In this document: piece by piece, positions 746 through 51,601 of the stretch
Layout of the letters: every line of letters starts with the position of its first letter
Numbering within the stretch: the first letter of the stretch is position 1
DNA from: Gammaproteobacteria bacterium
GTDB taxonomy: Bacteria; Pseudomonadota; Gammaproteobacteria; JACQPQ01
DNA length: 64,000 nt
Assembly: GCA_016207405.1 (NCBI GenBank)
Contig: JACQPQ010000021.1
Span: 4,936 to 68,935, forward strand
Reading direction: 5' to 3'
Notes under the pieces: generated by a model
What the model saw: only the letters and a program-made list of their open reading frames with translations
What the model was told of the DNA's origin: nothing
The model's database searches: none
Program-made: the position numbers and the translations under genes

Positions 746-782
746 ATAAATTGGTGGACCGCTCGCTTTGTCCACCCTACAA
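746..782. repeat. REP-like palindromic element, reverse-complement orientation of the TAGGGTGGACAAAGCGAGCGGTCCACCAATT family
   Basis: The sequence aattggtggaccgctcgctttgtccaccctacaa is the exact reverse complement of the 42702 copy. It lies in the short spacer between two minus-strand genes. Confidence 0.7.
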
Positions 783-785
783 ATC

Positions 786-1871
786 TTATCCCTTACCCCT
801 TTTTAACAAAATCGTTCCGAGCGCCTTGTGAAGTCTCCTGATGATCTTGTCTGTCATTACCCAATCGATGCAAGGATCGGTAATAGATACCCCATACTGC
901 AACCCTTCTCTTCCTTTTTTAGGGTCAAGACTCTGTTTACCCCAATTGAGATTACTCTCTAACATCAAAGCAACTATAGAACGATTGCCACCTAAGATCT
1001 GTTGAATAACGGCGTTTACTCCATTGACTTGTTTTGCTGGATCTTTGGCAGAATTTCCATGGCTACAATCTACCATAATGTTGGGGGTGAACCCCGCTTT
1101 TATCAAAGCATCCTCACAAGCAACGATACTCCCCACATCATAATTAGGACCCGTGTGCCCTCCTCGCAATACTAAATGGGTATAAGGGTTGCCTTTGGTT
1201 CGGACAACCGCAACCTTGCCTTCGGGATTCACACTTAAAAAATGACTCGGATATTTTGCAGAGCGCATCGCATGGAGTGCAACCTGCCAGTTGCCATCCG
1301 TTCTATTTTTGAACCCAACAGCCGAGGAAAACCCACTCGCCATTCTTCGATGGGTTTGAGATTCCACTGTTCTTGCCCCTATGGCCGTCCATGAAAAAAG
1401 ATCTTGAATATACTGGGGTGAAATGAGATCCAAAGCCTCCCCAGAGGCCGCTACTCCCATTTCAGCCAAAGAGAGTAACAACTGGCGAGCCAAGCTAAGA
1501 CCTTCTTCAATTTGGTAGGTTCCATCCAAAAAAGGGTCCACGATTAAACCCTGCCAACCCATTTCCGTTCTTGGTTTTTCAAAGTAAACGCGCATCACCA
1601 AAAACAGAGTGTCTCCTACCGCTTTGGCAAGCACTTTAAGTTTTTCGGCATACTCGCGTGCTGCCCGGATGTCATGAATAGAACAAGGCCCTACCACCAC
1701 AAATAAACGAGGATCTTTTCTATCTAAAATGTCTTTAATGACGTTCTGCCCTTTGGCAACCGTTCTGACGGCCTCTAATGTCATCGGCAATTGCTGCTTT
1801 AAAGCCTTGGGCGTGATGATCCGGTCTTCAGAAAAAACGTGAATATTTTCGATGTCGGATAAGCAAGTCAT
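786..1871 (-). CDS. 3-deoxy-7-phosphoheptulonate (DAHP) synthase, class I alpha (AroF/G/H type)
   Basis: It contains [13 protein letters not shown] and a long alignment to AroG (KPRT...GWKGL, xDCSHGNS). I trimmed the ORF to [11 protein letters not shown], which aligns with the AroG N-terminus. The longer track ORF (to 2024) would overlap the divergent guaA. Confidence 0.85.
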
Positions 1872-3541: not shown

Positions 3542-4132
<591 letters not shown>

Positions 4133-10090: not shown

Positions 10091-11764
10091 TTAGACAAGC
10101 GTCAGCATCTTTCGTGCATGCTGGAGCGTTTCGGGCGTTTGGCTTTTGCCTCCCACCATACGGGCAATTTCTAAAACTCTTTCTTCTTCATTAAGAGGAT
10201 GAACCGTCGAATAAGTCACTTGACACTGTACGGTTTTTTCAACGCGAATATGGGAACTTCCCCAAACGGCGACTTGTGCAAGATGAGTGACACAAATCAC
10301 CTGTTTGCGCTCCCCAAGTTTTTTTAACAGCCGGCCTACGGTATCTGCCGTTTTTCCACCCACGCCCACATCCACTTCATCGAATAGAAAAGTAGGAGTG
10401 GGCAATAAGGTTGTCGTTAAAGCCTCTATGGCAAGACTAATTCTCGAAAGCTCTCCCCCAGAGACTACTTGTTTTAAAGGTTTTAAAGGATGGTCTGGGT
10501 TTGTAGTGATAAGCCATTCGACTTTTTCGAGTCCCTCGGCAGTTTCTTCACCTGAAGCACAAGGAGAAAAATGAACTTTAAACTTTCCATAGGGCATTCC
10601 CAGTTGTTTTAAATAAGGGAGGAGCGCTTTTTCAAAACAAAGCGAAGTGGCTTGGCGCAGACAAGTGAGTTGGTTTGCCTTCTCACAATATGTCTGTTTT
10701 GCACAGAGAGCCGCTTCTCCAAGCTCAGCTATTTTGGGCTCTAGTGCTTCGAGTTCCGCCAACTCACATTTGAGTTTTTTGTGGAAAGAAGGTAAATCGG
10801 GAGCTTTGATGTTATGTTTGCGTACAAGTTGATGAATGCACTCAAGCCGAGTAGATACGTTCAAGAGTTCTTCGGGTTCTATGTCAAGCTTGTTTAAACA
10901 TGACTTTAGGTGAGTTACGGTTTCTTGAACGTAGATATGGGCTTGTTTAAGCAATTCAATTGGCGTTTGCAAACTGCCCTCGTATTCGGAGATTTCTTGC
11001 AGCAAACGGATGGTTTGAAGAAGCGTCTCTTGTGCTGAGCCCTCATCTTTTTCTTCAAGGAGGTTAAGCGATCCGCGAATGTGAGAAAACAGTTTTTCGA
11101 GATGGATCAGGCGGTGGTACTTTTGTTCGAGAGAAGAGAGTTCATTTTCTTGAAGAGCAAGGGCATCGAGTTCTTTAACCTGGTAACTTAAGAGTTCCCG
11201 TGCTGTGAGTTGTTGGCTTGCAAGGGTTTGCGCGATTTTAAAATCCTCTTCTGCCTTCTGCCAAACCGCATAGCTTTTTCTGACCCCATCAAGAAGGGGG
11301 ATATGCTGCCCAAAACTATCCAGAAGTTCCCTTTGAGTCGCTGTCGAAAGAAGCGTTTGATGTTGCTGTTGGGTATGCGTATGAATGAGAAAATTGCCTA
11401 ACTGCTGAAGGAGAGCAACCGTTGTAAGGCTATGATTGATGTAAATTTTAGAGTGCCCTTCTTGAGTGAGAATTCTGCGGATAAGAAGGGTGGTTTCGGG
11501 GGGCGCCAGAAGTTCATGCGCTTTCAACCACTCCATAGCGTGTGGCGCGAAATGTAAGTCGAAGAAAGCGGTAATCTCGCATTTTTCCGCGCCCTGTCGA
11601 ATCAGTGCCGGTTGTGCCCGCTGCCCTAAAATAAGGGCCATCGCTTCGACAAGAATGGATTTTCCTGCGCCTGTTTCTCCCGTGATGACCGTTAGCCCCG
11701 CGTAAAAATCCAGTTCAAGATTTTCAATCGTTAAAAGGTTTTTAACCTGAAGAGATGTCAGCAT
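10091..11764 (-). CDS. recN: DNA repair protein RecN
   Basis: It has the N-terminal LENLELDFYAGLTVITGETGAGKSI, a coiled-coil middle, and a C-terminal SGGELSRISLA signature. Confidence 0.95.
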   Translation of the reverse strand: MLTSLQVKNLLTIENLELDFYAGLTVITGETGAGKSILVEAMALILGQRAQPALIRQGAEKCEITAFFDLHFAPHAMEWLKAHELLAPPETTLLIRRILTQEGHSKIYINHSLTTVALLQQLGNFLIHTHTQQQHQTLLSTATQRELLDSFGQHIPLLDGVRKSYAVWQKAEEDFKIAQTLASQQLTARELLSYQVKELDALALQENELSSLEQKYHRLIHLEKLFSHIRGSLNLLEEKDEGSAQETLLQTIRLLQEISEYEGSLQTPIELLKQAHIYVQETVTHLKSCLNKLDIEPEELLNVSTRLECIHQLVRKHNIKAPDLPSFHKKLKCELAELEALEPKIAELGEAALCAKQTYCEKANQLTCLRQATSLCFEKALLPYLKQLGMPYGKFKVHFSPCASGEETAEGLEKVEWLITTNPDHPLKPLKQVVSGGELSRISLAIEALTTTLLPTPTFLFDEVDVGVGGKTADTVGRLLKKLGERKQVICVTHLAQVAVWGSSHIRVEKTVQCQVTYSTVHPLNEEERVLEIARMVGGKSQTPETLQHARKMLTLV

Positions 11765-12648
11765 TAGAGCTTTCGTCCCCAGTGTAATTTATTTCGGAGG
11801 GTTTTAAAGTAGCAATATCGTTTGGGGTGAATAAGATTCAGGTGTCCTTTTTGTTTTTCGATGTGGATTTCATCCCCAGGCACCGTCGGGAAGACTATTT
11901 GGCTATCACAGCTCACTTTGGGATAAACCTTATTATGGGCAGAAGGGACTAGTTTTATGCGGCGGTTTCCTTCTACGACGATGGGGCGGCTACTTAAGGT
12001 ATGGGGGCATAGGGGAACTAAAACGATAGCATCCAGAGAAGGATGCAAAATAGGCCCGTCGGCGGATAAAGCATAGGCCGTAGAACCCGTTGGGGTCGCC
12101 GTGATGAGGCCATCGGAGCGTTCGCTATAGACAAATTGCTCGTCAATATAGACTTCAAACTCGATCATTTTACTCACGCTCCCATGGGAAAGAAGCACTT
12201 CGTTCAGTGCATTGCCAGTTGCGGTGACTTTGCCTTGGTGTTCTATTCGAAGGGACAACAGGAATCTTTTTTCTTGGTAATATTGCCCACTTAAAACTTC
12301 GAGTAATTCCTCTTCAAGCGCTGTCGGATGAATGTCCGTCAAAAAGCCTAAATGTCCCCGATGAATACCCAGGACCGGCGTTTTCGAAAGCGACAGTGCA
12401 CGAGCTGCATTGAGCAAGTTTCCATCCCCCCCAATGACGATAATCAGTTCTGAACAAGCCGCGAGTTCTGGCATGGGTTTTACGGAAAAAGAGTGCCCTG
12501 GTAAAAGGCTTGCCGTTTGTTCTTCTAATAGGAGGGTACGGTTCTGTTGGAGAAGCGCATCCCGTAAAATTTTAAGTGTTTCGAGGGCTTCCGTGTCTTG
12601 CTGCTTACCAATGACGCCAATGGTTTGGAACAGAGGTTTTTTTGTCAT
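11764..12648 (-). CDS. nadK: NAD kinase
   Basis: It has the GGDGNLL motif (IIVIGGDGNLLNAARAL), the NE/D short motif, and a length of 294 aa. Confidence 0.9.
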   Translation of the reverse strand: MTKKPLFQTIGVIGKQQDTEALETLKILRDALLQQNRTLLLEEQTASLLPGHSFSVKPMPELAACSELIIVIGGDGNLLNAARALSLSKTPVLGIHRGHLGFLTDIHPTALEEELLEVLSGQYYQEKRFLLSLRIEHQGKVTATGNALNEVLLSHGSVSKMIEFEVYIDEQFVYSERSDGLITATPTGSTAYALSADGPILHPSLDAIVLVPLCPHTLSSRPIVVEGNRRIKLVPSAHNKVYPKVSCDSQIVFPTVPGDEIHIEKQKGHLNLIHPKRYCYFKTLRNKLHWGRKL

Positions 12649-12656
12649 ATGCCGTT

Positions 12657-13385
12657 TTATAGGGCCTCTCGGAGATAAACAGGCAGTGCATGTTCTGGCT
12701 GAAGCGTTTCACCTTTTTCGAACTTCTGGATCGCCAAAGGTATTAAAGCTCTGGCCATAGGATAACAGTTGGGAAACGAGTGGTGCAAATAGGGGGCAAA
12801 TCGTGTTTCTAAAACACTTGAATAAGCTTTCCAACCACTTCCTACCCCAACCCATTCCGTTGCTTTAGATAAGAGATTTTCTGGGATAGAAATTTCAGAA
12901 GGTTTCTGTAGGGTATCCGGGATAATAGTTTTTAAAAGGGTAAGGGATAAGGGGTAAGGGGTAAGGGATAAGGGGTAATGATTGTTTTCTTCAATTTGGT
13001 AAGCGCCCCAATAAACAGCTCCCATGCGGGCATCTTGTACTCCTAGTACCGCTCCCTTCGAAAAAGTAAGATGCGCTTCTTCGGCAAGACAAGCCAAGCT
13101 TGAGACAGCCACAATAGGTAAGTCATGGGCAAAGGCAAGGCTTTGCGCGATGGAGGCCCCCAGGCGAACCCCTGTAAAAGTACCTGGCCCCTGACCAAAA
13201 ACAATCAGATCTAAATTTGAAAAAAAAATGTTGCTTTTGGAAAGCAAATTGTGGATCATACCGAGCACGTGAAGACTTGCTTTTTGAGTGCCCTCTTCTT
13301 GTTGCTCGAGTAAATGATTGTGTACAAGAAGCGCAACGGAGCAACGTTCTGTTGAGGTTTCTAGGGCGAGTATGGTGTAAGACAT
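12657..13385 (-). CDS. tsaB: tRNA threonylcarbamoyladenosine biosynthesis protein TsaB (YeaZ). It carries an in-frame heptamer-repeat insertion.
   Basis: It has the N-terminal MSYTILALETSTERCSVALL motif and a YeaZ fold. Residues YPLSLTPYPLSLT are encoded by (TTACCCC/TTATCCC)n at 12937..12979. Confidence 0.85.
   Translation of the reverse strand: MSYTILALETSTERCSVALLVHNHLLEQQEEGTQKASLHVLGMIHNLLSKSNIFFSNLDLIVFGQGPGTFTGVRLGASIAQSLAFAHDLPIVAVSSLACLAEEAHLTFSKGAVLGVQDARMGAVYWGAYQIEENNHYPLSLTPYPLSLTLLKTIIPDTLQKPSEISIPENLLSKATEWVGVGSGWKAYSSVLETRFAPYLHHSFPNCYPMARALIPLAIQKFEKGETLQPEHALPVYLREAL
12937..12979. repeat. (GGGTAAG/GGATAAG)x6 heptamer tandem array inside tsaB
   Basis: The sequence is aagggtaagggataaggggtaaggggtaagggataaggggtaa. 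It is 42 bp, which is a multiple of 3, and is in-frame. It is G4-capable on the plus strand. Confidence 0.75.
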
Positions 13386-13450: not shown

Positions 13451-14434
13451 ATGTCTCACCAAATGGTTGTAAGCGCATTGAACCAGGGAGAGTTTTTCAT
13501 TTATTCGCATCTACAACAATCGCTTGTAATCCCCATTATTTGGGGCGGGTTGTTGTGTGCCGTAAATATTCCTGCGCTCGCTTCAGACAACAGTCTTCTT
13601 CCCATGACAAACATGGCACGATGTACAAAGTGTCATGATGAAAACACCTCCCCCGTTTTACCTTTATTAAAATCTAAACATGCCGTAGTAGCGGACAAAA
13701 GAACTCCATTTGCAGGGGAAGCATGCCAGACCTGTCACGGGTTAAGTGAAGAACACATGAAAGGTTCTGAAGATGGAGGGCCGCGCCCTTCTCCCAGCGT
13801 TCGATTTGGTTCCAAGTCCAACACCCCTCTTTCAACTCAAAATGAATCCTGTTTAGCCTGCCACCGTTCTGGTTTGCGGATGGAATGGAAAGGCAGTCCA
13901 CATGAAATGAAAGGGGTGGGGTGCATTAGCTGTCATACCCTACACACCGGTTCGGATAAAGTTTTAGATAAAAAAAACCAAGCGGAAGTTTGTTTTACCT
14001 GTCACAAAACACAGAGGGCGGAGAGTCATAAGCTTTCGTCTCATCCCATTCAAGAAGGGAAAGTCGTCTGTTCCTCTTGCCATAATCCCCATGGTGCAGT
14101 AGGGCCAAAACTTTTGAGTACCAATACGGTTAATGAAACTTGTTATACCTGTCACGCGGAAAAACGAGGGCCGTTTTTGTGGGAACATGCTCCTGTGAGC
14201 GAAAACTGCATAACCTGTCATACACCTCATGGCTCTATTCATAAGCCGCTTTTGAAATCCAGGGGGCCGTGGTTGTGCCAGCAATGCCATTTGACATCTA
14301 ATCATCATACGAGTGGTGCCTATAACTGTTCTAGTTGTCACTCAACCCGGCGGCTATCGGGCAAAGATTGTTTAAATTGTCATTCAGAGGTGCATGGATC
14401 GAATCATCCTTCTGGTGCAAGGTTAATGAGGTGA
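13451..14434 (+). CDS. Periplasmic decaheme c-type cytochrome, MtrA/MtoA/PioA family
   Basis: There are 11 CXXCH motifs in 327 aa (CTKCH, CQTCH, CLACH, CISCH, CFTCH, CSSCH, CYTCH, CITCH, CQQCH, CSSCH, CLNCH). The size and heme density are typical of MtrA/MtoA. A large OM beta-barrel gene follows immediately. The signal peptide may start at an upstream non-ATG codon. Confidence 0.8.
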   Translation: MSHQMVVSALNQGEFFIYSHLQQSLVIPIIWGGLLCAVNIPALASDNSLLPMTNMARCTKCHDENTSPVLPLLKSKHAVVADKRTPFAGEACQTCHGLSEEHMKGSEDGGPRPSPSVRFGSKSNTPLSTQNESCLACHRSGLRMEWKGSPHEMKGVGCISCHTLHTGSDKVLDKKNQAEVCFTCHKTQRAESHKLSSHPIQEGKVVCSSCHNPHGAVGPKLLSTNTVNETCYTCHAEKRGPFLWEHAPVSENCITCHTPHGSIHKPLLKSRGPWLCQQCHLTSNHHTSGAYNCSSCHSTRRLSGKDCLNCHSEVHGSNHPSGARLMR

Positions 14435-14479
14435 AAGGGATAAGGTGAAAGGGATAAGGGGGAAGGGATAAGGGGTAAG
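14431..14479. repeat. Heptamer tandem array (GTGAAAG GGATAAG)x2 GGGGAAG GGATAAG GGGTAAG
   Basis: It is a seven-unit direct 7-mer array. The first unit supplies the TGA stop of the decaheme gene. Confidence 0.7.
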
Positions 14480-14485
14480 TTTTTG

Positions 14486-14526
14486 TAGGGTGGACAAAGT
14501 GAGCGCAGCGAACGGTCCACCTAAGC
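14486..14526. repeat. REP-like palindrome TAGGGTGGACAAAGTGAGCGCAGCGAACGGTCCACCtaagc
   Basis: GGTGGAC and GTCCACC arms enclose an inner palindromic core. It lies between the decaheme gene and the porin gene. Confidence 0.7.
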
Positions 14527-14581
14527 TTGCAGGTCGAATTCAAGCGAAGCGTAGAATCCGACAATTAAAACTCAAAAAGCA

Positions 14582-16801
14582 ATGAGAATGCATAAAAAGA
14601 TATTGATAGCCATTTTATATTTGGCCGCATCCCCTCTTTGGGCAGAAGATGATCCTTTTTCTTTTGGCCCGAGTGATGGAGGCCTTTCTCTAGAAGCCCC
14701 CGCTCCACCACCACCCAACCGTCCTAAAAGCGAACTTGAAATAGGCCTCGCATATATCAACCGAGATTCCTTTAAATTTGGAGAGTACACGGGACAAGAA
14801 GAAAAAGGCCCTTATGTTATTGGGAATGTAGACATTCATCGCCGAGGTGCTTTTGATAGCAGAACTTTTGACAGTGATGGTGCACTGTATTGGATTTTGA
14901 GAGGTAGAAACTTGGGTCTTACGTCGCGAGAAATGGAGGTGGAGACTGGGGTACAGGGCGATTATAAGGTAGGGATGAGCTATGACCAATTGCCTAAATT
15001 TCAAACGGATACGGCTAAGACGATATTTCGAGGCGTGGGGGGAGATACACTTACATTACCTCCTGGGTGGGTAAGAGCTGACGAAACATCTGATATGACA
15101 GAGCTTAATAATAGTCTTCACGAACTCAAGGTAAGCCATGAACGTAAGAAGTATGGTATGGAGTTTTCCAAATTCTTTTCCCGTGGTTGGGAGTTTAGTG
15201 CGAAGTATCATCGTGAAACGAAAGAGGGGAAAAAGCTTGTAGGGGCCATTATAGAGAGTTGGGACTTTGATGATAGTTTTCATGAACCCACCGTTATTAT
15301 CCCTGAGCCTATCGATTACGTCACTCAACAAGTGGATGTGAAATTGAGCTTTACAGGGAAAAAGAGCCAATTTGAGGGGGGGTATTCCGTATCCTTGTTT
15401 GATAACCACAAAGATTCTCTTATTTGGGAAAATCCATTTTCTGCAATTGGAGGGACGCCTGAAACAAGAGGCAGAATAGGGCTGCCTCCTGATAATCAGT
15501 TTCATCAATTAAAAGCGATCTGGGGATATAACTTCGCCCCAAACACTCGTTTAACAGCCCATGGAACGTTCGGAAGAATGACTCAGGATGAGCGGTTCCT
15601 TCCCTATACCATCAACCCAGATTTGGCCGGTTCAGGCCTTCCTCGTTCTTCTTTAAATGGTAGGGTGGATACCTTAAGTTTTTATACTAAATTATTTTCA
15701 CGGTATGGAAATGCTCTGAATTGGGTGGCCAGTTATCGCTATGAAGACCGGGACAATCGCACGTCAAGGGCTTCCTATATTGGTTATGGTGATGCAGCCG
15801 ATCAAGGGGGGGTAGCAAACGCTAGAACTAATCTTCCTTTTAGTTTCAAGCAGAATCAATTCAAGCTTGATGCAACCTATGAATGGTTTTACCGGACGTA
15901 CTTACAGGGCGGCTATGAATACACTCAAATGGAACGCACGCTTTCAGAAGTGAAGAAAAACCAAGAACATTTATATCGGTTAGAGATCAGACGTAATGCG
16001 TTTGACTCATTAACAGGAGGCATTCGTTTTCTTCAGGCTTATCGGCGGGGATCTTCTTATCGAACCACTGCTCTTCAAACGGCTACGGGAGGGGAACATT
16101 CAATGATTCATCCTCTTCAAAGAAAGTTTTATTTAGCCAGCAAAAATAGAACCCAAGGCGGGGGTTTTATGGAGCTTGATCCAATCGAAGCGGTGACGCT
16201 TCAGTTATCTATTGACTTGTATGAAGATGACTATTTAAAGTCAAAAATGGGATTGCGGAAAAGTATGGGACAAGTTTACGCAATAGATGCGACGATGGTT
16301 CCTAAAAAAGATATTACCACGTATGCTTTTTACACCTATGAACATTCGTATTCCGATCAGAAAGAGCGAGCCTTTGAGACTGTTGCTGAGAGCAATGATC
16401 CACGAAGAGACTGGAATAAAAAAACACGAGAAGGGATAGATACGCTGGGGGCTGGTTTTAAATGGGGTCCTTTTTTGGATCGGTGGGATACGGGGGCGGA
16501 TTATACTTACGCACGCTCGCGTGGAAAGGGCCCTGTGAAAACAGGCTCTGCTTTGGATGCTCCCGATCCACCCATTCGTATGTTAACCACGGAGCTTCAC
16601 CGGTTAGATGTCTTTTTAAAATATAAAATCAAAGAGTCGCTTTCGGCTAAGATGAATGTTCTTTATGAGAAATTCAGTTCGCGGGATTATGCCGTCGATA
16701 AAATACAATTAAACGAAATAGATACGATTTTGATAACGGGTGAAAAGAGCCCAGATTACTCAGTTTCTGTAATTGGACTGTCGTTGTTATATGATTTTTA
16801 G
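14582..16801 (+). CDS. Outer-membrane beta-barrel of a porin-cytochrome complex (MtrB/MtoB/PioB-like)
   Basis: It is 739 aa with a signal peptide (MRMHKKILIAILYLAASPLWA), abundant alternating aromatic beta-strand patterns (YxYxxR, FxF), and a C-terminal LLYDF, which is the OMP Phe terminus. It sits immediately 3' of the decaheme gene. Confidence 0.75.
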   Translation: MRMHKKILIAILYLAASPLWAEDDPFSFGPSDGGLSLEAPAPPPPNRPKSELEIGLAYINRDSFKFGEYTGQEEKGPYVIGNVDIHRRGAFDSRTFDSDGALYWILRGRNLGLTSREMEVETGVQGDYKVGMSYDQLPKFQTDTAKTIFRGVGGDTLTLPPGWVRADETSDMTELNNSLHELKVSHERKKYGMEFSKFFSRGWEFSAKYHRETKEGKKLVGAIIESWDFDDSFHEPTVIIPEPIDYVTQQVDVKLSFTGKKSQFEGGYSVSLFDNHKDSLIWENPFSAIGGTPETRGRIGLPPDNQFHQLKAIWGYNFAPNTRLTAHGTFGRMTQDERFLPYTINPDLAGSGLPRSSLNGRVDTLSFYTKLFSRYGNALNWVASYRYEDRDNRTSRASYIGYGDAADQGGVANARTNLPFSFKQNQFKLDATYEWFYRTYLQGGYEYTQMERTLSEVKKNQEHLYRLEIRRNAFDSLTGGIRFLQAYRRGSSYRTTALQTATGGEHSMIHPLQRKFYLASKNRTQGGGFMELDPIEAVTLQLSIDLYEDDYLKSKMGLRKSMGQVYAIDATMVPKKDITTYAFYTYEHSYSDQKERAFETVAESNDPRRDWNKKTREGIDTLGAGFKWGPFLDRWDTGADYTYARSRGKGPVKTGSALDAPDPPIRMLTTELHRLDVFLKYKIKESLSAKMNVLYEKFSSRDYAVDKIQLNEIDTILITGEKSPDYSVSVIGLSLLYDF

Positions 16802-42688: not shown

Positions 42689-42701
42689 ACGCAGATCTGA
42701 G

Positions 42702-42732
42702 TAGGGTGGACAAAGCGAGCGGTCCACCAATT
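42702..42732. repeat. REP-like palindrome TAGGGTGGACAAAGCGAGCGGTCCACCAATT (minimal copy)
   Basis: It lies 13 bp after the clpX stop. This is the canonical form of the family. Confidence 0.7.
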
Positions 42733-43342: not shown

Positions 43343-44167
43343 TTATTCTTCCACAAGTCCTAACTGTTTAGACCGAAGAAAAGCGGCGCGGACTGCCTTT
43401 TGAATAATTTCTTTTGTCCTAGCGGCATTCAAAACCTTAAATGCCGCTTCTGTGGTCCCTCCTTTTGAAGTCACTTGTGCTCGGAGGTGAGAAAGTTTTT
43501 TCTTAGTTTTTAAAGCCAGTGTAGCCGAACCGAGAGCCGTTTGTACAACCAACGTGTGGGCCATGGGTGAGTGCAATCCCAATTCAATAGCAACCGCCTC
43601 GAGGGCTTCCATCAACCCCAAAAAATAGGCAGGGCCACTGCCAGATATGGCGGTTACAACGTCTAAGAGGGCTTCATCCTTTATCCATGCCGTGCATCCT
43701 ACGGATTGCATTATCGCTTCGGCCAATCGTTTTTGCTGCACCGATACGGCTCTCGTTGCATACAGAGCCGTCATACCTTGGCCAATCAAGGCTGGTGTAT
43801 TCGGCATAGAGCGGACAATAGCGCCTGTTTTTAAACCCAATACTTTTTGAATCGTTTGGGTACGCACTCCTGCCACGATAGAGAGAATAAGAGGTAGTTG
43901 TTTTTTGATAAAGACGGCAATGCTTTTCGCGGCTTCTCTCAAATGCTGTGGTTTGACTGCAAACACAATGATCTGACTTTCTTTTGTAACGGTCATATTA
44001 TCCAAGGAAGTGTGTATGCCGAATTTCCGATGGAGACGAGTGAGCTTGTAACGGTTCGGATCGCTCGCCCCTATATTTTTAGGATTGCAGCCCGCATGAC
44101 ATAAGCCAGTAACCAAACTGCTTGCCATGTTACCGCCACCGATGATCGCAATTTTAGGAATGATCAT
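43343..44167 (-). CDS. proC: Pyrroline-5-carboxylate reductase
   Basis: It has the Rossmann motif IAIIGGGNMASSLVTGL and a length of 274 aa. Confidence 0.9.
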   Translation of the reverse strand: MIIPKIAIIGGGNMASSLVTGLCHAGCNPKNIGASDPNRYKLTRLHRKFGIHTSLDNMTVTKESQIIVFAVKPQHLREAAKSIAVFIKKQLPLILSIVAGVRTQTIQKVLGLKTGAIVRSMPNTPALIGQGMTALYATRAVSVQQKRLAEAIMQSVGCTAWIKDEALLDVVTAISGSGPAYFLGLMEALEAVAIELGLHSPMAHTLVVQTALGSATLALKTKKKLSHLRAQVTSKGGTTEAAFKVLNAARTKEIIQKAVRAAFLRSKQLGLVEE

Positions 44168-44822
44168 ACTGTTTTAGCCATGGGATCAACTCTTTGATAG
44201 TATCAATACACCCCACTGGCGCAAAGGGTAACAGCTGTTCGCGACTGCGGGTCCCATAGCTCACGGCTAAAGCAGGGACTTTGGCGGAAGTTGCCATTTC
44301 AAGGTCGTATTCGGTATCTCCTATCATAAGTGCTTCTTCAGGGCCCACTCGCATTTCTTTGAGCAATTCGTAAAGCATGCGAGGGCTGGGTTTCGATTCC
44401 GTCTCATCGGCTGTTCGCGTGGAAATAAAAAAGGAAGATAAATTATGAATTTTTAGGGATTTTTCAAGTCCTTGGCGGTGTTTCCCGGTAGCGATGGCTA
44501 ACTGATATTCGCCTTGCAAAATTTTTAACACATCCAGCACACCCTCAAAAAGCGTTTCAGGGTGAATGACCGCTTCATCCCATGTTTTCCAATAGATTTC
44601 CCGATATTTTTGCATCAAAGTAGCTCGTTCATTGGGTGTCGCGCCAGGCGCGATCGCGTCAATCGATTCTACAAGACCCAATCCAATGACTTTTTTAATC
44701 GCGATGTCTTCTGGAATAGGCTGGTTTAATTCCGCTGCAGCCTGTTGAACACAGAAAACAATATGAGCGGTGGAATTAACGAGTGTGCCGTCCCAGTCGA
44801 AGATTAAAAGTTTTAATGGCAT
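44154..44822 (-). CDS. HAD-family phosphatase (phosphoglycolate phosphatase-like)
   Basis: It has HAD motif I (LLIFDWDGTLVNS) and motifs II/III (GD.EYD). The length is 222 aa. Confidence 0.65.
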   Translation of the reverse strand: MPLKLLIFDWDGTLVNSTAHIVFCVQQAAAELNQPIPEDIAIKKVIGLGLVESIDAIAPGATPNERATLMQKYREIYWKTWDEAVIHPETLFEGVLDVLKILQGEYQLAIATGKHRQGLEKSLKIHNLSSFFISTRTADETESKPSPRMLYELLKEMRVGPEEALMIGDTEYDLEMATSAKVPALAVSYGTRSREQLLPFAPVGCIDTIKELIPWLKQYDHS

Positions 44823-44825
44823 AAG

Positions 44826-44855
44826 GGGTTAGTGGTTAGTGATTAGTGGTTGGTG
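44826..44855. repeat. (GGTTAGT/GATTAGT)x4 heptamer array
   Basis: The sequence is gggttagtggttagtgattagtggttggtgg. On the minus strand this is (CCACTAA)n. It encodes the RluC C-terminus (TPPTTNH) and stop and ends 4 bp before the next gene's ATG. Confidence 0.65.
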
Positions 44856-45813
44856 GAGTCGGTAGGAGAGGCGCAAGCAGACGAACCAGGCATTTTTTTA
44901 ACTCCTCAGGCAATGGGGCCGTAATATTCATAACTTTCTTCTTATCTGGCAGCTTAAAAGCGATTTGATGCGCATGCAAAAACAATCGTGCTAAGCCATA
45001 TTGGCGCATGTGTTGATTAAACTTTTTGTCCCCATATTTTTCATCTCCGGCTATTGCGTGACCTATCGCTTGTGCATGGACGCGGATCTGATGCGTGCGT
45101 CCTGTATGGGGCCGCACTTCTACTAAGGTCGTTTCCTTGTAGACATTGATGGGGGTAAAAGTTGTATGAGCCATTTTACCTTCTTTTTTCACACAAACCA
45201 TTCGTTCACCCGAAACCAGTTGGCTTTTAAATAAGGGGAGTTCTACATTTTTGTGTTTGAAAGAACAGTGTCCTTTCAGCAAGGCGAGATAGATTTTTTG
45301 TACAGTCCCATGTACAAACTGTTCATGAAGATATTTTAAAACGCTTCTTTTGCAAGCAAATAGCAAACACCCAGAGGAGTCTTTGTCCAACCGATGGACT
45401 AATTCCAATGAGGTGTTTTCTGAGATCATTTTCCGAATAATATCGATAATACTATAAGCAAGCCCACTGCCTCCTTGGACGGCGAAACCAGACGGTTTAT
45501 TGATGACGAGTATATTTTCATCTTTATGGAGTATGGAGGCTTGAAATAATTGAAGAACGCGAGGCGGAATTTCAGGAATCGTAGAAGGTTCAGGAAGACT
45601 AAGGGGTGGAAGGCGGACTTCATCGCCTTCCGCTAAATGGTAGCTGGGCTTCACCCGTTTTTTGTTTACTCGCACCTGCCCCGTTCGTATTAAACGATAT
45701 AGGGCACTTTTGGGTAGCCCTTTTAACCGACTCTTTAAAAAATTATCCAAGCGTTGGTTGTAAAACGAAGGAGCAACGGAAAGGATAGAAACAGGGGTTT
45801 TGGTAGGGTACAT
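44836..45813 (-). CDS. rluC: 23S rRNA pseudouridine synthase, RluC-like
   Basis: It has an S4 domain (LDNFLKSRLKGLPKSALYRLIRTGQVRVNKKRVKP) and the catalytic HRLDKDSSG. Confidence 0.7.
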   Translation of the reverse strand: MYPTKTPVSILSVAPSFYNQRLDNFLKSRLKGLPKSALYRLIRTGQVRVNKKRVKPSYHLAEGDEVRLPPLSLPEPSTIPEIPPRVLQLFQASILHKDENILVINKPSGFAVQGGSGLAYSIIDIIRKMISENTSLELVHRLDKDSSGCLLFACKRSVLKYLHEQFVHGTVQKIYLALLKGHCSFKHKNVELPLFKSQLVSGERMVCVKKEGKMAHTTFTPINVYKETTLVEVRPHTGRTHQIRVHAQAIGHAIAGDEKYGDKKFNQHMRQYGLARLFLHAHQIAFKLPDKKKVMNITAPLPEELKKCLVRLLAPLLPTPPTTNH

Positions 45814-45834
45814 AGGGCTATTTGCTGAAGTTAC

Positions 45835-47577
45835 TTATTCTTTGGAAAATGGTCGAAGATGTTCTATCCGCAAAACCAGGCGCTCATCTTGAGTATAGTC
45901 ATCCATATTAAGTTGATATACAAACTCTGCATACTGACAATGTGGATTCGGCCATTTATCTTGTTCAATGTTAAAGGCGATGGCTTCTATGGGTTTTGTC
46001 GTCGACTGCGTGTCCATAGGCACCACACGCATCTTTAAATGTTTTTTGGCAACCAAACGCTGTTCTAAAATTTGAAATTTGCCATCAAAACAAGGTTCTG
46101 GAAAATTCTGCCCCCAGGGTCCGGCTTGTTTTAAAGCCAGCGCCATTTCTAAGCAAAAGTCAGATTCTTTTAACGTACCATCTGTCATAATTTTGCCTTG
46201 CAAATGTTCCTTTTGGAGGTGTCCTGATAGCGTTTCATTAAAGGCCAACTTAAATCGTTCATAGTGATCTGGGGTGATAGACAGCCCTGCTGCCATGGCA
46301 TGTCCACCGAATCCTTTGATCAGATTAGGATATCGAGTCGCTATCGCCTCCAACACATCTCGTATATGAACGCCTGGAATCGAACGGCCCGATCCTTTGA
46401 GTTCTTCCGCATTGTGTTGTGCAAAAGCAATGACTGGACGATGAAACCGTTCTTTAAGTTTACCTGCCAAGATCCCAATGACACCCGGATGCCAGCTGGG
46501 ATGATAGACACAAAGCCCAAAGGGGATATTTTCCGGTTCTAAACGGAGTGAGGCTAGAGTGTCGTTCGCTTCTTGTTCCATGGTCGCTAAAATGTTACGC
46601 CTCTCACGGTTCAAGGCATCCAGTTCGCGAGCCAATGGAAGGGCTTCTTTAAGTTCTTTAGCGAGGAGACAGCGAATACCAACCGACATATCTTCTAATC
46701 GCCCTGCGGCATTTAAACGAGGCGCTACTAAAAATCCTAAATCTGAGGTCGTAACGGAATGAAATTTTTTACCGGCGATGGATAACAAAGCGCGTATGCC
46801 TGCACACGCACGTCCAGTTTGAATGCGGGTAAGTCCATGGTGCACTAAAATTCGGTTGTTTTGATCGAAGGGTACAACATCGGCAACGGTTCCGAGCGCA
46901 ACGAGATCTAACAGTTCGGCCAAATTAGGTTCTTTTTTACCTTGAAACAAAAACCAGTGCTGTTCTCGTAAAAAGGCGCGGAGTGCCAGCATGACATAAA
47001 AAATAACCCCAACCCCCGCTAAATGTTTGCTTGGAAAAAGATCACAAGGCAAATTGGGGTTCACAGTCGCATCTGCGGGAGGAAGACAAGCACCAGGTAA
47101 ATGATGGTCAGTCACCAGAACGGAAATCTCTTTTTGACGGGCAGCTTCTACACCCTCTATGCTTGAAATGCCATTGTCTACCGTCACGATAAGGTTGGGA
47201 TGGGCAGTCGCGGCAACTTCTACAATTTCTGGCGTTAATCCATAGCCAAATTTAAAACGATTGGGTACCAAAAAATCCACATGAAGAAACCCCATCGCTT
47301 GAAGCGCCTTTATGGCGACAACGGTGCTGGTTGCGCCATCGGCATCAAAATCTCCTATGATTAACACCCGGCCTTGCTCTTTAAGGTTTTTGAATAAAAG
47401 GTGTACGGCATTCTCAATACCGGATAATGAATGAAACGGTAAAAGTTTTTGGAGGCGAAGTTCCAATTCTTCGTCGTTTGAGAGGCCTCGCGCAAGATAA
47501 ATGCGTTGTAAAAGCGGGTGAACTTTTTGTGAAAAATTTCCTTTTGCTGAAAGTGGGGCGCGATGTGCGATTAACAT
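45835..47577 (-). CDS. recJ: Single-stranded-DNA-specific exonuclease RecJ
   Basis: It has DHH motifs (LIIGDFDADGATS, VTDHH), a DHHA1 domain and a length of 580 aa. Confidence 0.9.
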   Translation of the reverse strand: MLIAHRAPLSAKGNFSQKVHPLLQRIYLARGLSNDEELELRLQKLLPFHSLSGIENAVHLLFKNLKEQGRVLIIGDFDADGATSTVVAIKALQAMGFLHVDFLVPNRFKFGYGLTPEIVEVAATAHPNLIVTVDNGISSIEGVEAARQKEISVLVTDHHLPGACLPPADATVNPNLPCDLFPSKHLAGVGVIFYVMLALRAFLREQHWFLFQGKKEPNLAELLDLVALGTVADVVPFDQNNRILVHHGLTRIQTGRACAGIRALLSIAGKKFHSVTTSDLGFLVAPRLNAAGRLEDMSVGIRCLLAKELKEALPLARELDALNRERRNILATMEQEANDTLASLRLEPENIPFGLCVYHPSWHPGVIGILAGKLKERFHRPVIAFAQHNAEELKGSGRSIPGVHIRDVLEAIATRYPNLIKGFGGHAMAAGLSITPDHYERFKLAFNETLSGHLQKEHLQGKIMTDGTLKESDFCLEMALALKQAGPWGQNFPEPCFDGKFQILEQRLVAKKHLKMRVVPMDTQSTTKPIEAIAFNIEQDKWPNPHCQYAEFVYQLNMDDYTQDERLVLRIEHLRPFSKE

Positions 47578-47598
47578 TCACTTCTCCCTTACCCCTCA

Positions 47599-47634
47599 CC
47601 CCTCTCCCGCTGGTGCGGGAGAGGGGTGTTTTTT
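47599..47634. terminator. GC-rich hairpin / putative bidirectional terminator (CCCCTCTCCCGC-tggt-GCGGGAGAGGGG followed by tgtttttt)
   Basis: It is a perfect 12-bp stem immediately 3' of coq7. A T-run lies on the plus side and an A-run on the minus side. The stem sequence is related to the 18452 hairpin. Confidence 0.55.
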
Positions 47635-48205
47635 AGATCCAATAAGCCACCGTCGTCATAATTTTTGCCATGCGGGCCATGCACCAGCGTACCGGCTTGG
47701 GTAATAGAATGCCTCCGTCTTTAAGTGCATGGGTGGCATGCCGTGCTTCATCTTGTTTCATATGTTCAAGAAGGATTCTGCTCTTCTCGTCAGAACTAGG
47801 TAAAAGATTTAGGTGGTTTTCTAAATGACGAACCACCTGTCGTTCGGTTTCAGCTACAAACCCCAATGCAAAGCGGTTCCCCAATAACCCAGCTCCAGCG
47901 CCCACTAAAAAAGCACCCGCATACCATACTCTATTTAAACGACTGGGCTTTGCCTCTAATTGCTGAAGTCGTTCTTGGCACCACAAAAGGTGATAGTTTT
48001 CTTCTTCGGCGGCTTTTAAAAATTTTTGCTTACAGTGAGGCGAAGCGGTGGCGGCATGCCCTCGATACAGGGCTTGTGCACAGACTTCCCCCGCATGATT
48101 TACACGCATGAGATGCGCGGAATGTTTTTGGCGAGCGCTTTCTGAAAGGCAATGAATGAGTTTACGAAGACTTTTATCAAAGCGAATAATCCATGCGTCT
48201 CCCAC
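47633..48205 (-). CDS. coq7: Ubiquinone biosynthesis hydroxylase Coq7 (di-iron, DMQ hydroxylase)
   Basis: It has HLMRVNHAGEVCAQALYRG and a second ExxH half (EEENYHLLWCQERL). It is about 190 aa. The start appears to be GTG. Confidence 0.8.
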   Translation of the reverse strand: MGDAWIIRFDKSLRKLIHCLSESARQKHSAHLMRVNHAGEVCAQALYRGHAATASPHCKQKFLKAAEEENYHLLWCQERLQQLEAKPSRLNRVWYAGAFLVGAGAGLLGNRFALGFVAETERQVVRHLENHLNLLPSSDEKSRILLEHMKQDEARHATHALKDGGILLPKPVRWCMARMAKIMTTVAYWI

Positions 48206-48220
48206 AAGCTTTTCCTCTCG

Positions 48221-48253
48221 TCCCCAGCCCTTCCCCCTTATTCCTTACCCCTT
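48221..48253. repeat. Degenerate heptamer array (the reverse complement reads AAGGGGT AAGGAAT AAGGGGG AAGGGCT)
   Basis: It lies in the spacer between rpsI and coq7. Confidence 0.55.
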
Positions 48254-48652
48254 TTATCGTTTAGAGTACTGGGCTCTCTTCCGTGCTTTGTGAAGGCCGT
48301 ATTTTTTGCGTTCTACTTTACGCGCATCGCGTGTTAAAAGACCACGCCCTCGTAATTGAGAACGTAAGGTCTCGTCATACTGCAGTAAAGACCGAGCGAT
48401 CCCTAATCGAACAGCGCCTGCCTGACCACTTAAGCCGCCCCCTTTTACATTGACAAGAATGCGAAATTTATCCACCAATTGTGTGGCTTCTTGGGGTTGG
48501 CGAATAATCATTAAGGCTGTTTTACGGCCAAAATACTGCTCCACCGGTTTACCATTGACAATGATGTCGCTTGTTTTTGCTTTCTTAAGAAACACTCTTG
48601 CAACGGCTGTCTTGCGACGCCCCGTTCCGTGATAAGTTTTAGTTTTGACCAT
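48254..48652 (-). CDS. rpsI: 30S ribosomal protein S9
   Basis: It contains [17 protein letters not shown]...[10 protein letters not shown]...[10 protein letters not shown]. Confidence 0.95.
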
Positions 48653-48664
48653 AAGTTTTGTTTT

Positions 48665-49093
48665 TTAAAGCGACAACGTTTTAGGCTGTTGAGCAGTATG
48701 CTGGTGTGAAGGACCTGCATAAATTTTGAGTTTTTTAGCCATGGCTCTCCCTAATGGGTTTTTAGGCAGCATCCCACAAACAGCTTGACGGATAATGCGC
48801 TCTGGAAATTTGGCTAATAAGTCTCGAAACGAGATGGTTTTAATGCCACCTGGGTAGCCAGAGTGATGGGTGTACATTTTGTCCATAAACTTTCGCCCTG
48901 TGACTCGAATTTTTTCGGCATTGATAACAATGACGTAATCTCCCGTATCGGCATTGGGCGTAAACTCTGGTTTATGTTTGCCGCGCAAAATCAGAGCAAT
49001 TTTACTAGCCAGTCTTCCTAAAACTTGGGTTTCGGCATCCACCACAATCCAGTTGTGTTGAATATTATTTTTTTTTGCAACGTAGGTTTTCAT
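48665..49093 (-). CDS. rplM: 50S ribosomal protein L13
   Basis: I placed the start at MKTYVAKK ([17 protein letters not shown]...) by alignment with E. coli L13 (142 aa). Confidence 0.95.
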
Positions 49094-49125
49094 AGCAAGA
49101 AGCCATGTTACACAAGTTAAAAATA

Positions 49126-49737
49126 TCACACAAGACCTAAATGTCGTAATAGACTGCCTTGGCGCACTTTTTGAACAGCCATTGAAAGAGAGCTGGCCTC
49201 TATAATAGAGCGAAGGCTCTTTAAGGCAGAATCGAAATGGTCGTTGACAACCAAATAATCATATTCCTTGTAGTGTGAAAGCTCTTGTTTGGCTTCGGAC
49301 AGTCTTCTCTGAATGGTTGCGGGTTTGTCTTGCCCTCTACCTTCTAGTCGTTCCTGCAAGGACGCTAGTGAAGGGGGCACAATAAAAATACCCACCGTTT
49401 CCTTAAAAAGAGCTCGAACCTGCCTGGCGCCTTGCCAGTCAATTTCCAAAATAACATCCTTCCCTTGTTTTAAAATGTCCTCTACTTGTTGCTTGGAGGT
49501 TCCATAATAATGTTCAAACACTCGGGCATATTCTAAAAAATCTTGTTTTTGAATCATGTCTTTGAAAGCACTATCCGACACGAAATGATAATGCACGTCT
49601 TTTTTCTCATCGACTCTTTTAGGGCGTGTTGTATAAGAAATAGAGGCTTGCAGATGGGTTTCTTCTTCAAGCAACGCTTTCAAAAGGCTAGTTTTTCCAG
49701 CGCCAGAAGGTGCGGAAATAATAAAGAGTGTGTTCAT
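49126..49737 (-). CDS. gmk: Guanylate kinase
   Basis: It has the P-loop [18 protein letters not shown] and a length of 203 aa. Confidence 0.9.
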
Positions 49738-49747
49738 TATTCTTCAG

Positions 49748-50614
49748 TTATTCAACATTTTGAATCTGCTCGCGCATTTTCTCGATAACAACCTTTAAGT
49801 CAAGTGCACAATGACCGATCTCAGCACACAGTGCCTTTGCTGACAACGTATTGATCTCCCGGCTCAATTCTTGCATTAAAAAGTCAAGCCGCTTGCCAAC
49901 GACGCCTCCACCTACAAGAACCTTTCGAACCTCGGCGAGATGTATTTCAAAACGCTCCGTTTCTTCTGTGACGTCTCCCTTTTGAAGAGCCAAAATGACT
50001 TCTTGTTCTAAGCGGGAGGGATCGATAGAGGCCTTCACGTCACCCACTTGCCGCATGAGTCGTTCTTTTAGTTTATCTTTCGAGAGAGGGATTAAAGCTT
50101 TTAGGGAACCCCAAGACTCTTCCATTTGCAGTAAGTATTGCATCAAGCATATATGGAGTGCTTGTCCTTCTGCTTCCCGACTCGCTTTTAATTGAACAAG
50201 AGCCTTTTCAAACATCTTTAAAACAGCTGGGTGCATTTCTGGAGGGAGCGAGGAGGTTTCCTGCAATACCCCCGGCCAGTGCAGAATATCCATCGCACTA
50301 AACTTGGATGTTCCGGCATTCTCTTTTGCGAGCTTCTGTCCAAGCGTCATAAGCCACTTCACAGCAACTTCATTGATGCTAAATGGATTGGGGTGCGCTT
50401 CCCCAGGCACAAAATGGAGTGTGATCTCCATTTTCCCCCTTTGAAACTCTTCCCCAAGTTTTTTTCTTAAAGTGGGCAAAAGTGGCAGAAATCCATTGGG
50501 TAGTCTAAAATTACAATCAAGATACCTATGATTCACTGAACGGAGCTCCCACGTTGACCTTCCAAACACACCTTCAACACTTTCACACCAAAATCCGGTC
50601 ATGCTTTGTATCAT
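49748..50614 (-). CDS. yicC: YicC-family protein
   Basis: I placed the start at MIQSMTGFW...WELRSVNHRYLDCNFRLP, which aligns with the E. coli YicC N-terminus. It is divergent from rph, as in E. coli. Confidence 0.8.
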   Translation of the reverse strand: MIQSMTGFWCESVEGVFGRSTWELRSVNHRYLDCNFRLPNGFLPLLPTLRKKLGEEFQRGKMEITLHFVPGEAHPNPFSINEVAVKWLMTLGQKLAKENAGTSKFSAMDILHWPGVLQETSSLPPEMHPAVLKMFEKALVQLKASREAEGQALHICLMQYLLQMEESWGSLKALIPLSKDKLKERLMRQVGDVKASIDPSRLEQEVILALQKGDVTEETERFEIHLAEVRKVLVGGGVVGKRLDFLMQELSREINTLSAKALCAEIGHCALDLKVVIEKMREQIQNVE

Positions 50615-50860
50615 TACTTTTGTCTCTGTTATACTCTGAAACCTAAGCAAGCCCCAGCAAATACTTATGACTTTTTACTTGTTCTTTGTTCCATTTTCTG
50701 CGTTGCAAAAAGAGTTACATAGTCAAACTATGCGCCTCTTTTTGCGCCTTGAAAATGGAACAAATTACGGCGTAAAAAGTTACAAGTATTTACTGAGGCT
50801 TGCTTAAATCCCAAAACTTAGAATAAAACTATTGTACAGAAATTTATAGGGAAACTCTTT

Positions 50861-51577
50861 ATGAGAAGAGCCAGAAGAGCACACAACGAACTTCGTGACA
50901 TTCGATTTATTCGGCATTTTACTAAACATGCGGAAGGAAGTGTGTTAGTAGAATTTGGGGATACGAAGGTTGTGTGTACAGCTAGCCTCACGGAAGGGGT
51001 GCCAAGATTTATGAAAGGGAAGGGCATTGGCTGGGTGACGGCTGAATATGGTATGTTGCCTCGTGCGACTCACACACGCACGCAACGAGAAGCTTCCATT
51101 GGAAACCCAACGGGAAGAACTTTTGAAATACAAAGACTCATCTCAAGAACGCTACGTGCTGCTGTTGACCTTCAGGCCTTACCGGAGCAAACCATTATGG
51201 TTGACTGTGATGTGATCCAAGCCGATGGAGGCACGCGCACAGCGGCGATTACAGGGGGATGTGTGGCGCTCTTTGATGCCATCAAACCTCTTATGGCAAA
51301 ACACCGCATGGTTAAAAATCCTTTTAAATGGATGGTTGCCGGTGTTTCAGTGGGTATGGTGAAGGGTGAACTTCTGTTGGATCTCGATTATGATGAAGAT
51401 TCGACTGCCCAAACAGATCTCAATGTTGTGATGACGGAGAATGAACAGTTGATTGAAATTCAAGGAACCGCTGAAAATGGAACCTTCCCACGTGATGACC
51501 TAGATAAACTGATTGACCTTGCCGCCCATGGCATTCAAATGATTATTCAAAAACAAAAGGAAGCACTCGTACTTTAA
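50861..51577 (+). CDS. rph: Ribonuclease PH
   Basis: It shows near-colinear identity to E. coli RNase PH ([32 protein letters not shown]). Confidence 0.95.
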
Positions 51578-51601
51578 AAATGTAAAGGGACCTTTTCAAT
51601 C

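Follow-up and report, generated by a model that had tools for sequence, protein, structure and literature searches.

An in-frame array of TAAGGGR heptamers inside a gammaproteobacterial tsaB gene, probably a tolerated passenger insertion in a hairpin loop

The DNA described here is a stretch of 64,000 nucleotides, referred to as the window, from a Gammaproteobacteria bacterium (GenBank assembly GCA_016207405.1, contig JACQPQ010000021.1, positions 4,936 to 68,935). On its minus strand it carries tsaB (yeaZ), which is followed by nadK and a recN-like gene, and inside tsaB lies a tandem array of six G-rich heptamers of the TAAGGGR type. The TIGR03725 profile matches the open reading frame (ORF) at 12657..13385 over profile positions 1-212 of 212, with an E value of 1.5e-50 and a score of 172.2 bits against a cut-off of 69.3. 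The encoded protein is identical to NCBI MBI4356657.1, which derives from a metagenome-assembled genome (MAG). In the window TsaB the GPG(S/T)FTG(V/I/L)R motif has been kept (G66-P67-G68-T-F70-T71-G72-V-R74), as have all 22 columns that are invariant in an alignment of 74 sequences. The nearest relative identified is P0002 on locus L001, with a TsaB that is 50-57% identical. The order tsaB-nadK-recN is the same on that locus, nadK being followed by a homologous 557-aa SMC_N protein.

Along the plus strand, a unit scan parses the array as GGGTAAG, GGATAAG, GGGTAAG, GGGTAAG, GGATAAG and GGGTAAT, with G tracts of 3-4 separated by TAA or ATAA. Tandem Repeats Finder reports the span 12938-12978 both with a period of 7 (5.9 copies, 88% matches) and with a period of 21 (2.0 copies, 100% matches). 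The array consists of one three-unit block (GGGTAAG, GGATAAG, GGGTAAG) repeated exactly, save that its final unit reads GGGTAAT; its longest perfect repeat is 21 bp x 2, the units being interrupted by G/A variants. When read in the frame of tsaB it gives residues Y137-T149 of the protein, YPLSLTPYPLSLT, a proline-rich peptide that holds YPLSLTP twice. The original prediction, made from the letters of the window, had described six 7-bp units lying in-frame inside tsaB, and this description is borne out by Tandem Repeats Finder, the unit scan, the TIGR03725 match and the translation. It had placed the array at 12937-12979; the array and its end are right, while the start was one base early, the true start being 12938. 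The assignment of the quadruplex-capable sequence to the non-template strand was mistaken: the G-rich strand, d(GGGTAAGGGATAAGGGGTAAGGGGTAAGGGATAAGGGG) as an oligonucleotide, is the plus strand and hence the template of the minus-strand tsaB, so that the tsaB mRNA carries the C-rich repeat.

Comparison of tsaB length among relatives, a check proposed together with the original prediction, has shown the insertion to be specific to the window. The 14 codons are absent from 73 of the 73 aligned homologues, each of which has a gap opposite HYPLSLTPYPLSLT in alignments of 14 and of 74 sequences. Between Y129 and P156, the larger alignment has 12 residues in 66 sequences, 11 in two, 18 in four and 23 in one, and 26 residues in the window TsaB only (1/74). 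Five other TsaB lineages carry 6-11 extra residues in the same loop. Where the nearest relative (L001) reads ...E N K T M Q A V I P D..., the codon alignment has ...E N N [14 codons] L L K T I I P D... for the window. No proto-repeat is present at the insertion site of L001 in this alignment, and no copy of the heptamer family occurs within 19 kb on that locus. As judged from the alignments, 14 codons (42 bp), no more and no fewer, have been inserted with the frame left undisturbed. Because a gap stands opposite it in all homologues and the nearest relative has no proto-repeat, the entire 42 bp is new DNA rather than expanded ancestral codons.

An AlphaFold2 model of the window TsaB was built from the 74-sequence alignment, with a mean predicted local distance difference test score (pLDDT) of 91.5 and a predicted template modelling score (pTM) of 0.90. 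The two-domain actin-like (ASKHA) YeaZ fold is present in the model, and Foldseek comparison with the YeaZ/TsaB structures 5br9, 4wq5, 4ydu and 1okj gave E values of 1e-23 to 1e-27 and target TM-scores of 0.87-0.94. The sole weak stretch covers residues 131-150 (block mean pLDDT 65 and 69). The insert lies there as a low-confidence hairpin tip that joins strands 124-133 and 149-160 of the C-terminal domain, and its loop is solvent-exposed; a surface loop had been expected when modelling on the YeaZ fold was proposed, and one has been found. Published work has shown that a four-helix bundle of the N-terminal domains forms both the TsaB-TsaD interface and the usual TsaB homodimer (PMC4330362), and published structures contain a 19-residue indel in the C-terminal domain between Thermotoga and Escherichia coli/Salmonella. 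By its position in the model, the insert is predicted to lie away from the N-terminal-domain surfaces that bind TsaD, and the window protein would be a working TsaB whose hairpin tip is enlarged and floppy.

Exact look-ups of NadK and of the neighbouring decahaem cytochrome led to Logan contigs from three runs (SRR12113385, SRR12113390 and SRR12113401), which match the window at 100% identity over 1.3-2.1 kb and end inside the array. Two contigs (SRR12113390 and SRR12113385) extend from nadK through the 3' half of tsaB into 30 nt of the array, ending at 12967, and one SRR12113385 contig extends from the decahaem gene through the 5' half of tsaB into 31 nt of the array, starting at 12949, in each case with 0 mismatches. 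The left and right pieces overlap by 19 nt (12949-12967) and match the window exactly. The insertion is real, both of its junctions being confirmed by independent assemblies. The Logan contigs, assembled at k=31, end in the array because arrays at different loci have 30-mers in common, and one such 30-mer is common to the tsaB array and the array at 32628-32676. The contig break was considered as a sign of polymorphism and rejected as such, the left-hand break being explained by this shared 30-mer. At 14431-14479, two runs and the MAG give the same array sequence. With k=31 public assemblies of this organism fragmenting at the heptamer arrays in this way (L122, L123 and L124 against window positions 12949-12967), genes that carry or abut arrays will be systematically split in, or missing from, such assemblies and the protein catalogues derived from them.

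A protein search for TsaB length variants returned the identical protein only, the next match being 50% identical, and the TsaB protein cluster has a single member in a collection of 15 billion proteins. A scan of genome contigs gave no close relative, a metagenome scan gave only a 34%-identical fragment, and an exact look-up of the TsaB protein gave no record. The species is represented by one population that is 100% identical across the three runs. The suggestion that the array is length-variable is not supported by this population, the contigs of all three runs ending inside the array.

The two strands of the repeat have different coding properties. On the G-rich strand, (GGGTAAG/GGATAAG)n places TAA in all three frames within three units, whereas the C-rich strand has no stop in any frame, each frame being a cyclic permutation of YPL(S/P)LTP. 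Because of these stops, an array inside a gene has to be C-rich on the sense strand, and for the same reason G-rich-sense arrays sit at gene ends, to which they donate stop codons. When the number of units in tsaB is changed in silico, the frame is kept by -3 and +3 (235 and 249 aa, respectively), in agreement with the earlier claim that the array is tolerated only in multiples of three units. Changes of -2, -1, +1 or +2 units give truncated products of 148-165 aa without the C-terminal ~90 residues, including the invariant G182, G184, P235, Y237, L238 and R239, and premature termination of this kind might be polar on nadK and recN. The G-A-G / G-A-G order of the units fits one 21-bp (three-unit) slippage event. 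Slipped-strand mispairing, which had been put forward as the source of the 42 bp, is in keeping with such a step; it cannot by itself explain the origin of the array, which is wholly new.

The array in tsaB belongs to a family that is dispersed over the window. A two-unit pattern allowing at most 2 mismatches has 25 matches against 1.24 expected; the maximum in shuffled sequences was 4, and none of 100 shuffles reached 25. These matches group into eight arrays in 64 kb, among which the tsaB copy is the only one internal to a gene. Of the seven others, six are G-rich on the sense strand and lie between co-oriented genes, and four overlap a gene 3' end and its stop codon. The description of the family as intergenic outside tsaB holds for three arrays in spacers and fails for these four. 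The G-rich-sense arrays give the last 3-9 codons and the stop of four genes (786-798, 4103-4132, 14429-14434 and 32657-32676), with C-terminal tails of the RGKG type. The array at 32628-32676 also extends into the Shine-Dalgarno region of a small signal-peptide ORF starting at 32618. An Rfam search across the window found three tRNAs only, with no match at the arrays. The coordinates of these features are collected in Table 1.

The same heptamer has been found far beyond this window. When 185,579 species genomes were scanned for (GGRTAAG)x3, at least 119 stretches from many phyla were returned, against ~2 expected by chance in our own calculation for uniform base composition, and exact-heptamer arrays occur in well over 100 species genomes. 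Among the matches listed are Cyanobacteria, Bacteroidota, Verrucomicrobiota, Acidobacteriota, Nitrospirota and Planctomycetota, with many of these matches being cyanobacterial, and the open frames over the arrays listed are nearly always on the C-rich strand. At least five arrays lie in-frame within recognisable genes, always in the C-rich-sense orientation and with peptides of the (S/P)L(T/I)PYPL type. The five hosts given in Table 1 are MAGs of five different phyla or orders. As the same heptamer is found in-frame in genes of unrelated phyla, the tsaB case constitutes one instance of a recurrent phenomenon. A literature search on the exact heptamer strings returned aptamer and telomere-probe papers only, and TAAGGGR was not found described there as a bacterial repeat.

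Table 1. Genes, heptamer arrays and REP-like (repetitive extragenic palindrome-like) elements of the window, with in-frame arrays of other genomes (window coordinates, except where a locus is named).
Feature	Coordinates	Strand	Context
tsaB (yeaZ), 242 aa	12657..13385	-	TIGR03725
nadK	11764..12648	-	NF002306 NAD kinase, E 2.9e-115; 8 nt downstream of tsaB, co-oriented
recN-like gene	10091..11764	-	From the ORF list; third gene of the co-directional tsaB-nadK-recN cluster
Six-unit G-rich heptamer array	12938..12979	+ (G-rich strand)	Inside tsaB; Tandem Repeats Finder and unit scan
2-unit array, G-rich on sense strand	785..798	-	Last codons (...RGKG) and TAA stop of DAHP synthase gene; REP-like hairpin adjoins
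3-unit array, G-rich on sense strand	4105..4125	+	Encodes C-terminal tail RGKGEGIRG of tadA-like deaminase
~7-unit array, G-rich on sense strand	14431..14479	+	Holds TGA stop of DmsE/MtrA-type decahaem cytochrome gene; precedes MtrB/PioB porin gene; REP-like hairpin after
7-unit array, G-rich on sense strand	32628..32676	-	Last codons (...GVRDKG) and stop of ORF 32657..33829
Related heptamers, GGTTAGT type	44819..44856	+	Spacer between pseudouridine synthase gene and HAD hydrolase gene; G-rich strand antisense to both
3-unit array, G-rich on sense strand	47581..47601	-	Between gene 47633..48205 and recJ; 12-bp GC-rich hairpin adjoins
3-unit array, G-rich on sense strand	48230..48250	-	Spacer between two minus-strand genes
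REP-like element	766-780(-), 3573-3587(+), 3591-3605(+), 14485-14499(+), 42701-42715(+)		5 copies against 0.04 expected
In-frame array, Elusimicrobiota	L025 2341-2368		rsmA/ksgA
In-frame array, Bacteroidota	L084 1822-1849		aroA
In-frame array, Sphingobacteriales	L119 7333-7360		rsmF
In-frame array, Chthonomonadaceae	L085 3271-3298		Heptosyltransferase gene
In-frame array, Nitrospira	L053 1486-1506		Receiver domain of hybrid kinase

The G-rich strand of the tsaB array is a strong candidate for quadruplex formation. G4Hunter gives a maximum of 2.28, and the ViennaRNA quadruplex model, used with DNA parameters, gives a three-tetrad G-quadruplex (G4) at about -9.6 kcal/mol. No Watson-Crick hairpin is predicted in the array, the minimum free energy being 0 on both strands. 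Canonical G3+N1-7 motifs number six in the 64 kb, five of them being heptamer arrays, and the canonical G3+N3-4 motif named in the original prediction is present on the G-rich strand. On these model calculations, the G-rich template strand can probably fold into a G-quadruplex when single-stranded. No function of this G4 needs to be invoked.

Several known repeat systems can be compared with the TAAGGGR family. G-rich heptamers have been described in Xanthomonas (GGGAATC) and Nostoc (GGGGA(C/T)T), with GGGNATC as a general form; Xanthomonas has about 185 arrays per genome, 7-11% of the Xanthomonas and Nostoc arrays are at least partly intragenic, and the units form G4 structures in vitro, as judged by circular dichroism, for which a regulatory role has been proposed (Rehm et al., 2015; PMC4692102). 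The TAAGGGR family resembles these repeats in its tandem 7-nt units, in its runs of at least three G and in being dispersed beyond chance. It differs from them in its unit, in its greater density (8 arrays in 64 kb) and in that its G4 is a prediction only, and the tsaB copy differs in lying wholly within the gene of a conserved enzyme subunit, to which it adds exactly 14 codons.

A second comparison is offered by the TAACTGA direct repeats of marine Beggiatoaceae, Cyanobacteria and Bacteroidetes (MacGregor, 2015; PMC4679880). In the forward direction these repeats place stops in each of the three frames and run over the stop codon of the gene upstream; their reverse copies are open, are occasionally found inside ORFs and encode a peptide with a 7-aa period. 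Their distribution is patchy and crosses phyla without a known transfer mechanism (PMC4679880). The TAAGGGR family follows an identical orientation logic, with stops in the forward and open frames in the reverse direction; it is nonetheless G-rich, has a different unit and is not a member of the TAACTGA group. Unlike the TAAGGGR arrays, TAACTGA repeats are located mainly just upstream of start codons, and their reverse copies lie mostly at protein termini or in hypothetical proteins, in contrast to the mid-protein position of the tsaB copy.

Tandem heptanucleotides have been reported as the most abundant class of long simple sequence repeats (SSRs) in many bacterial genomes (Mrazek et al., 2007, as cited in later work). 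The class is reported to have been first noted in Calothrix PCC 7601. The consensus sequences of the cyanobacterial short tandemly repeated repetitive (STRR) heptamers are units other than TAAGGGR, and the MtrA/MtrB-type module among the neighbouring genes hints, if weakly, that the host of the window is not cyanobacterial. Classical contingency loci share with the tsaB array an SSR inside an ORF, a unit that is not a multiple of three and a frame that is shifted by single-unit slippage. The contingency loci of Haemophilus and Neisseria, with tetra-, penta- and heptanucleotide repeats in surface or restriction-modification genes, have long homogeneous tracts that are demonstrably polymorphic and switch adaptively between ON and OFF, unlike the tsaB array, which consists of six interrupted units in a housekeeping gene. 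The TAAGGGR family belongs with the dispersed G-rich heptamer SSRs of known kind, and what sets it apart is modest, namely the mid-protein site and the clean 14-codon footprint.

Taken with a probability of roughly 0.75, the tsaB array is a tolerated passenger insertion of the dispersed (TAAGGGR)n repeat, neutral or nearly so, in a permissive hairpin loop, with selection on the frame explaining its six-unit, 2 x 21 bp structure. One copy of the genome-wide family would have landed inside tsaB and persisted there as a passenger. It would be tolerable owing to its C-rich-sense orientation, the only one in which no frame has a stop, to its length of exactly six units and to its position at a beta-hairpin tip of the C-terminal domain, off the N-terminal surfaces to which TsaD binds. 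Because an intermediate of 7 or 14 bp would truncate TsaB, the repeat would have arrived as a block of at least three units. One 21-bp slippage step, either a doubling or a contraction, would then have followed, and selection acting on TsaB as well as on nadK and recN downstream would remove all other length variants.

Several considerations weigh against a passenger insertion. The neutrality of the insert is something that we infer. TsaE contacts both TsaB domains in the published structure of the Thermotoga complex, and by analogy the enlarged hairpin could possibly affect the binding of TsaE or of tRNA. The unit count of the tsaB array is that of the MAG assembly only, as the k=31 Logan contigs stop inside it.

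In the original prediction the array was regarded as a potential contingency or phase-variation-like site. On such a reading, slipped-strand mispairing would change the number of units at high frequency and so toggle tsaB, and with it N6-threonylcarbamoyladenosine (t6A) and translation fidelity or growth, with multiples of three units as the ON state. The outcome of unit changes in silico, with truncation by one or two units and an intact frame after three, is compatible with such a switch; the 2 x 21 bp structure points to three units having slipped together at least once, and heptamers are known slippage substrates whose array lengths differ among Xanthomonas species. However, no length variant has appeared in the one protein cluster, in the genome and metagenome scans or in the three runs, whose junctions are identical and whose contigs end inside the array, and with six G/A-interrupted units the tract is neither long nor homogeneous. 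Moreover, tsaB heads the tsaB-nadK-recN housekeeping cluster, and OFF variants would probably be lethal or strongly counter-selected, to judge from the essentiality of tsaB in E. coli (PMC2954210). Because other housekeeping genes, in unrelated bacteria, carry similar arrays in frame, passive tolerance is suggested rather than a switch specific to tsaB; the proposal of a contingency site in this tRNA-modification gene is left unsupported, and it is considered quite improbable. A more elaborate version, in which a hypermutable array would reversibly inactivate tsaB and produce a slow-growing subpopulation with little or no t6A, a form of bet-hedging through translation fidelity in which three-unit states are the viable ON alleles, is very improbable. 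On a related but milder reading, the clean 42-bp footprint, without a proto-repeat or target duplication, may record an active, block-wise seeding of arrays, for example through templated copying from another array; the array at 32628-32676 has 30 nt in common with that of tsaB.

It is also conceivable, if unlikely, that the insertion has been co-opted, either through the YPLSLTP x2 loop as a new interaction surface or through a template-strand G-quadruplex that throttles transcription of tsaB-nadK-recN. The array is one of only six canonical motifs in the 64 kb, with the high G4Hunter score given above, the Xanthomonas and Nostoc heptamers fold into G4 in vitro and have been proposed as regulators, and the loop is exposed to solvent in the AlphaFold2 model. 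Yet the peptide is what the heptamer encodes in any frame and it recurs in unrelated proteins, so that no selection specific to tsaB is needed to account for it; the loop has low pLDDT and no predicted structure, and the nearest relative does without the insert. That the array is instead a mis-assembly at a dispersed repeat, the real tsaB being without an insert, is scarcely credible. The source is a MAG, the family is dispersed, a 30-mer is shared with the array at 32628-32676 and k=31 contigs break inside the tsaB array, all of which would accord with such an error, but independent Logan contigs reproduce both junctions without mismatch and with the same 19-nt overlap as in the window, the flanks are two halves of one gene in one frame, and the array is much shorter than a read.

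A passenger insertion in tsaB has consequences for how the heptamer family is seen in relation to coding sequence. In one orientation the repeat acts as a three-frame stop that caps genes; in the other it has no stop in any frame, and a conserved protein can accommodate it, given a permissive loop and multiples of three units. As the insertion is of exactly 14 codons and the nearest relative has no proto-repeat, it appears that several units can reach a new site together as a block, a constraint on models of the spread of such families. Its cross-phylum recurrence in-frame within housekeeping genes suggests a general source of loop insertions that has been little studied. On the present evidence, no new mechanism of regulation or switching is revealed.

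Other elements have been observed near the heptamer arrays. The REP-like element GTAGGGTGGACAAAG...CGGTCCACC consists of a stem of 7 bp (GGTGGAC/GTCCACC) and a loop that varies. A heptamer array stands directly beside it at three of its four sites, in a fixed order of array, T-rich spacer and hairpin, an arrangement which suggests that array and hairpin form a composite intergenic element. The palindrome is absent from 121 of 121 loci fetched from other genomes and is therefore specific to this lineage. Heptamers of another kind, AGTGCGG, lie on either side of the REP-like pair in the interval from guaA to the tadA-like gene (3544-3571 and 3637-3660). The GGTTAGT units proper are found at 44827-44856, between the pseudouridine synthase and HAD hydrolase genes. 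A strong 12-bp GC-rich hairpin (CCCCTCTCCCGC/GCGGGAGAGGGG), itself beside a T run, occupies 47597-47625, in the space separating recJ from its neighbour and immediately adjacent to the array at 47581-47601; it may be a plus-strand terminator, although the flanking genes lie on the minus strand.

Divergent from tsaB, the plus-strand region 13451-16801 encodes a decahaem c-type cytochrome of the DmsE/MtrA family (TIGR03508, 8.6e-86) and, after it, an outer-membrane porin of the MtrB/PioB type (PF11854, 6.4e-143), and the pair constitutes an extracellular electron-transfer module for iron oxidation or reduction. The cumulative GC skew of the window rises from ~4 kb to ~48 kb and then falls, with a sign change at about 44000-52000 that could mark the replication terminus or simply a switch in gene orientation. 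An AT-rich 34-bp tandem repeat (2.7 copies, 96% matches) is located at 28607-28699, in the spacer of the divergent ORFs 27720..28580(-) and 28705..29181(+).

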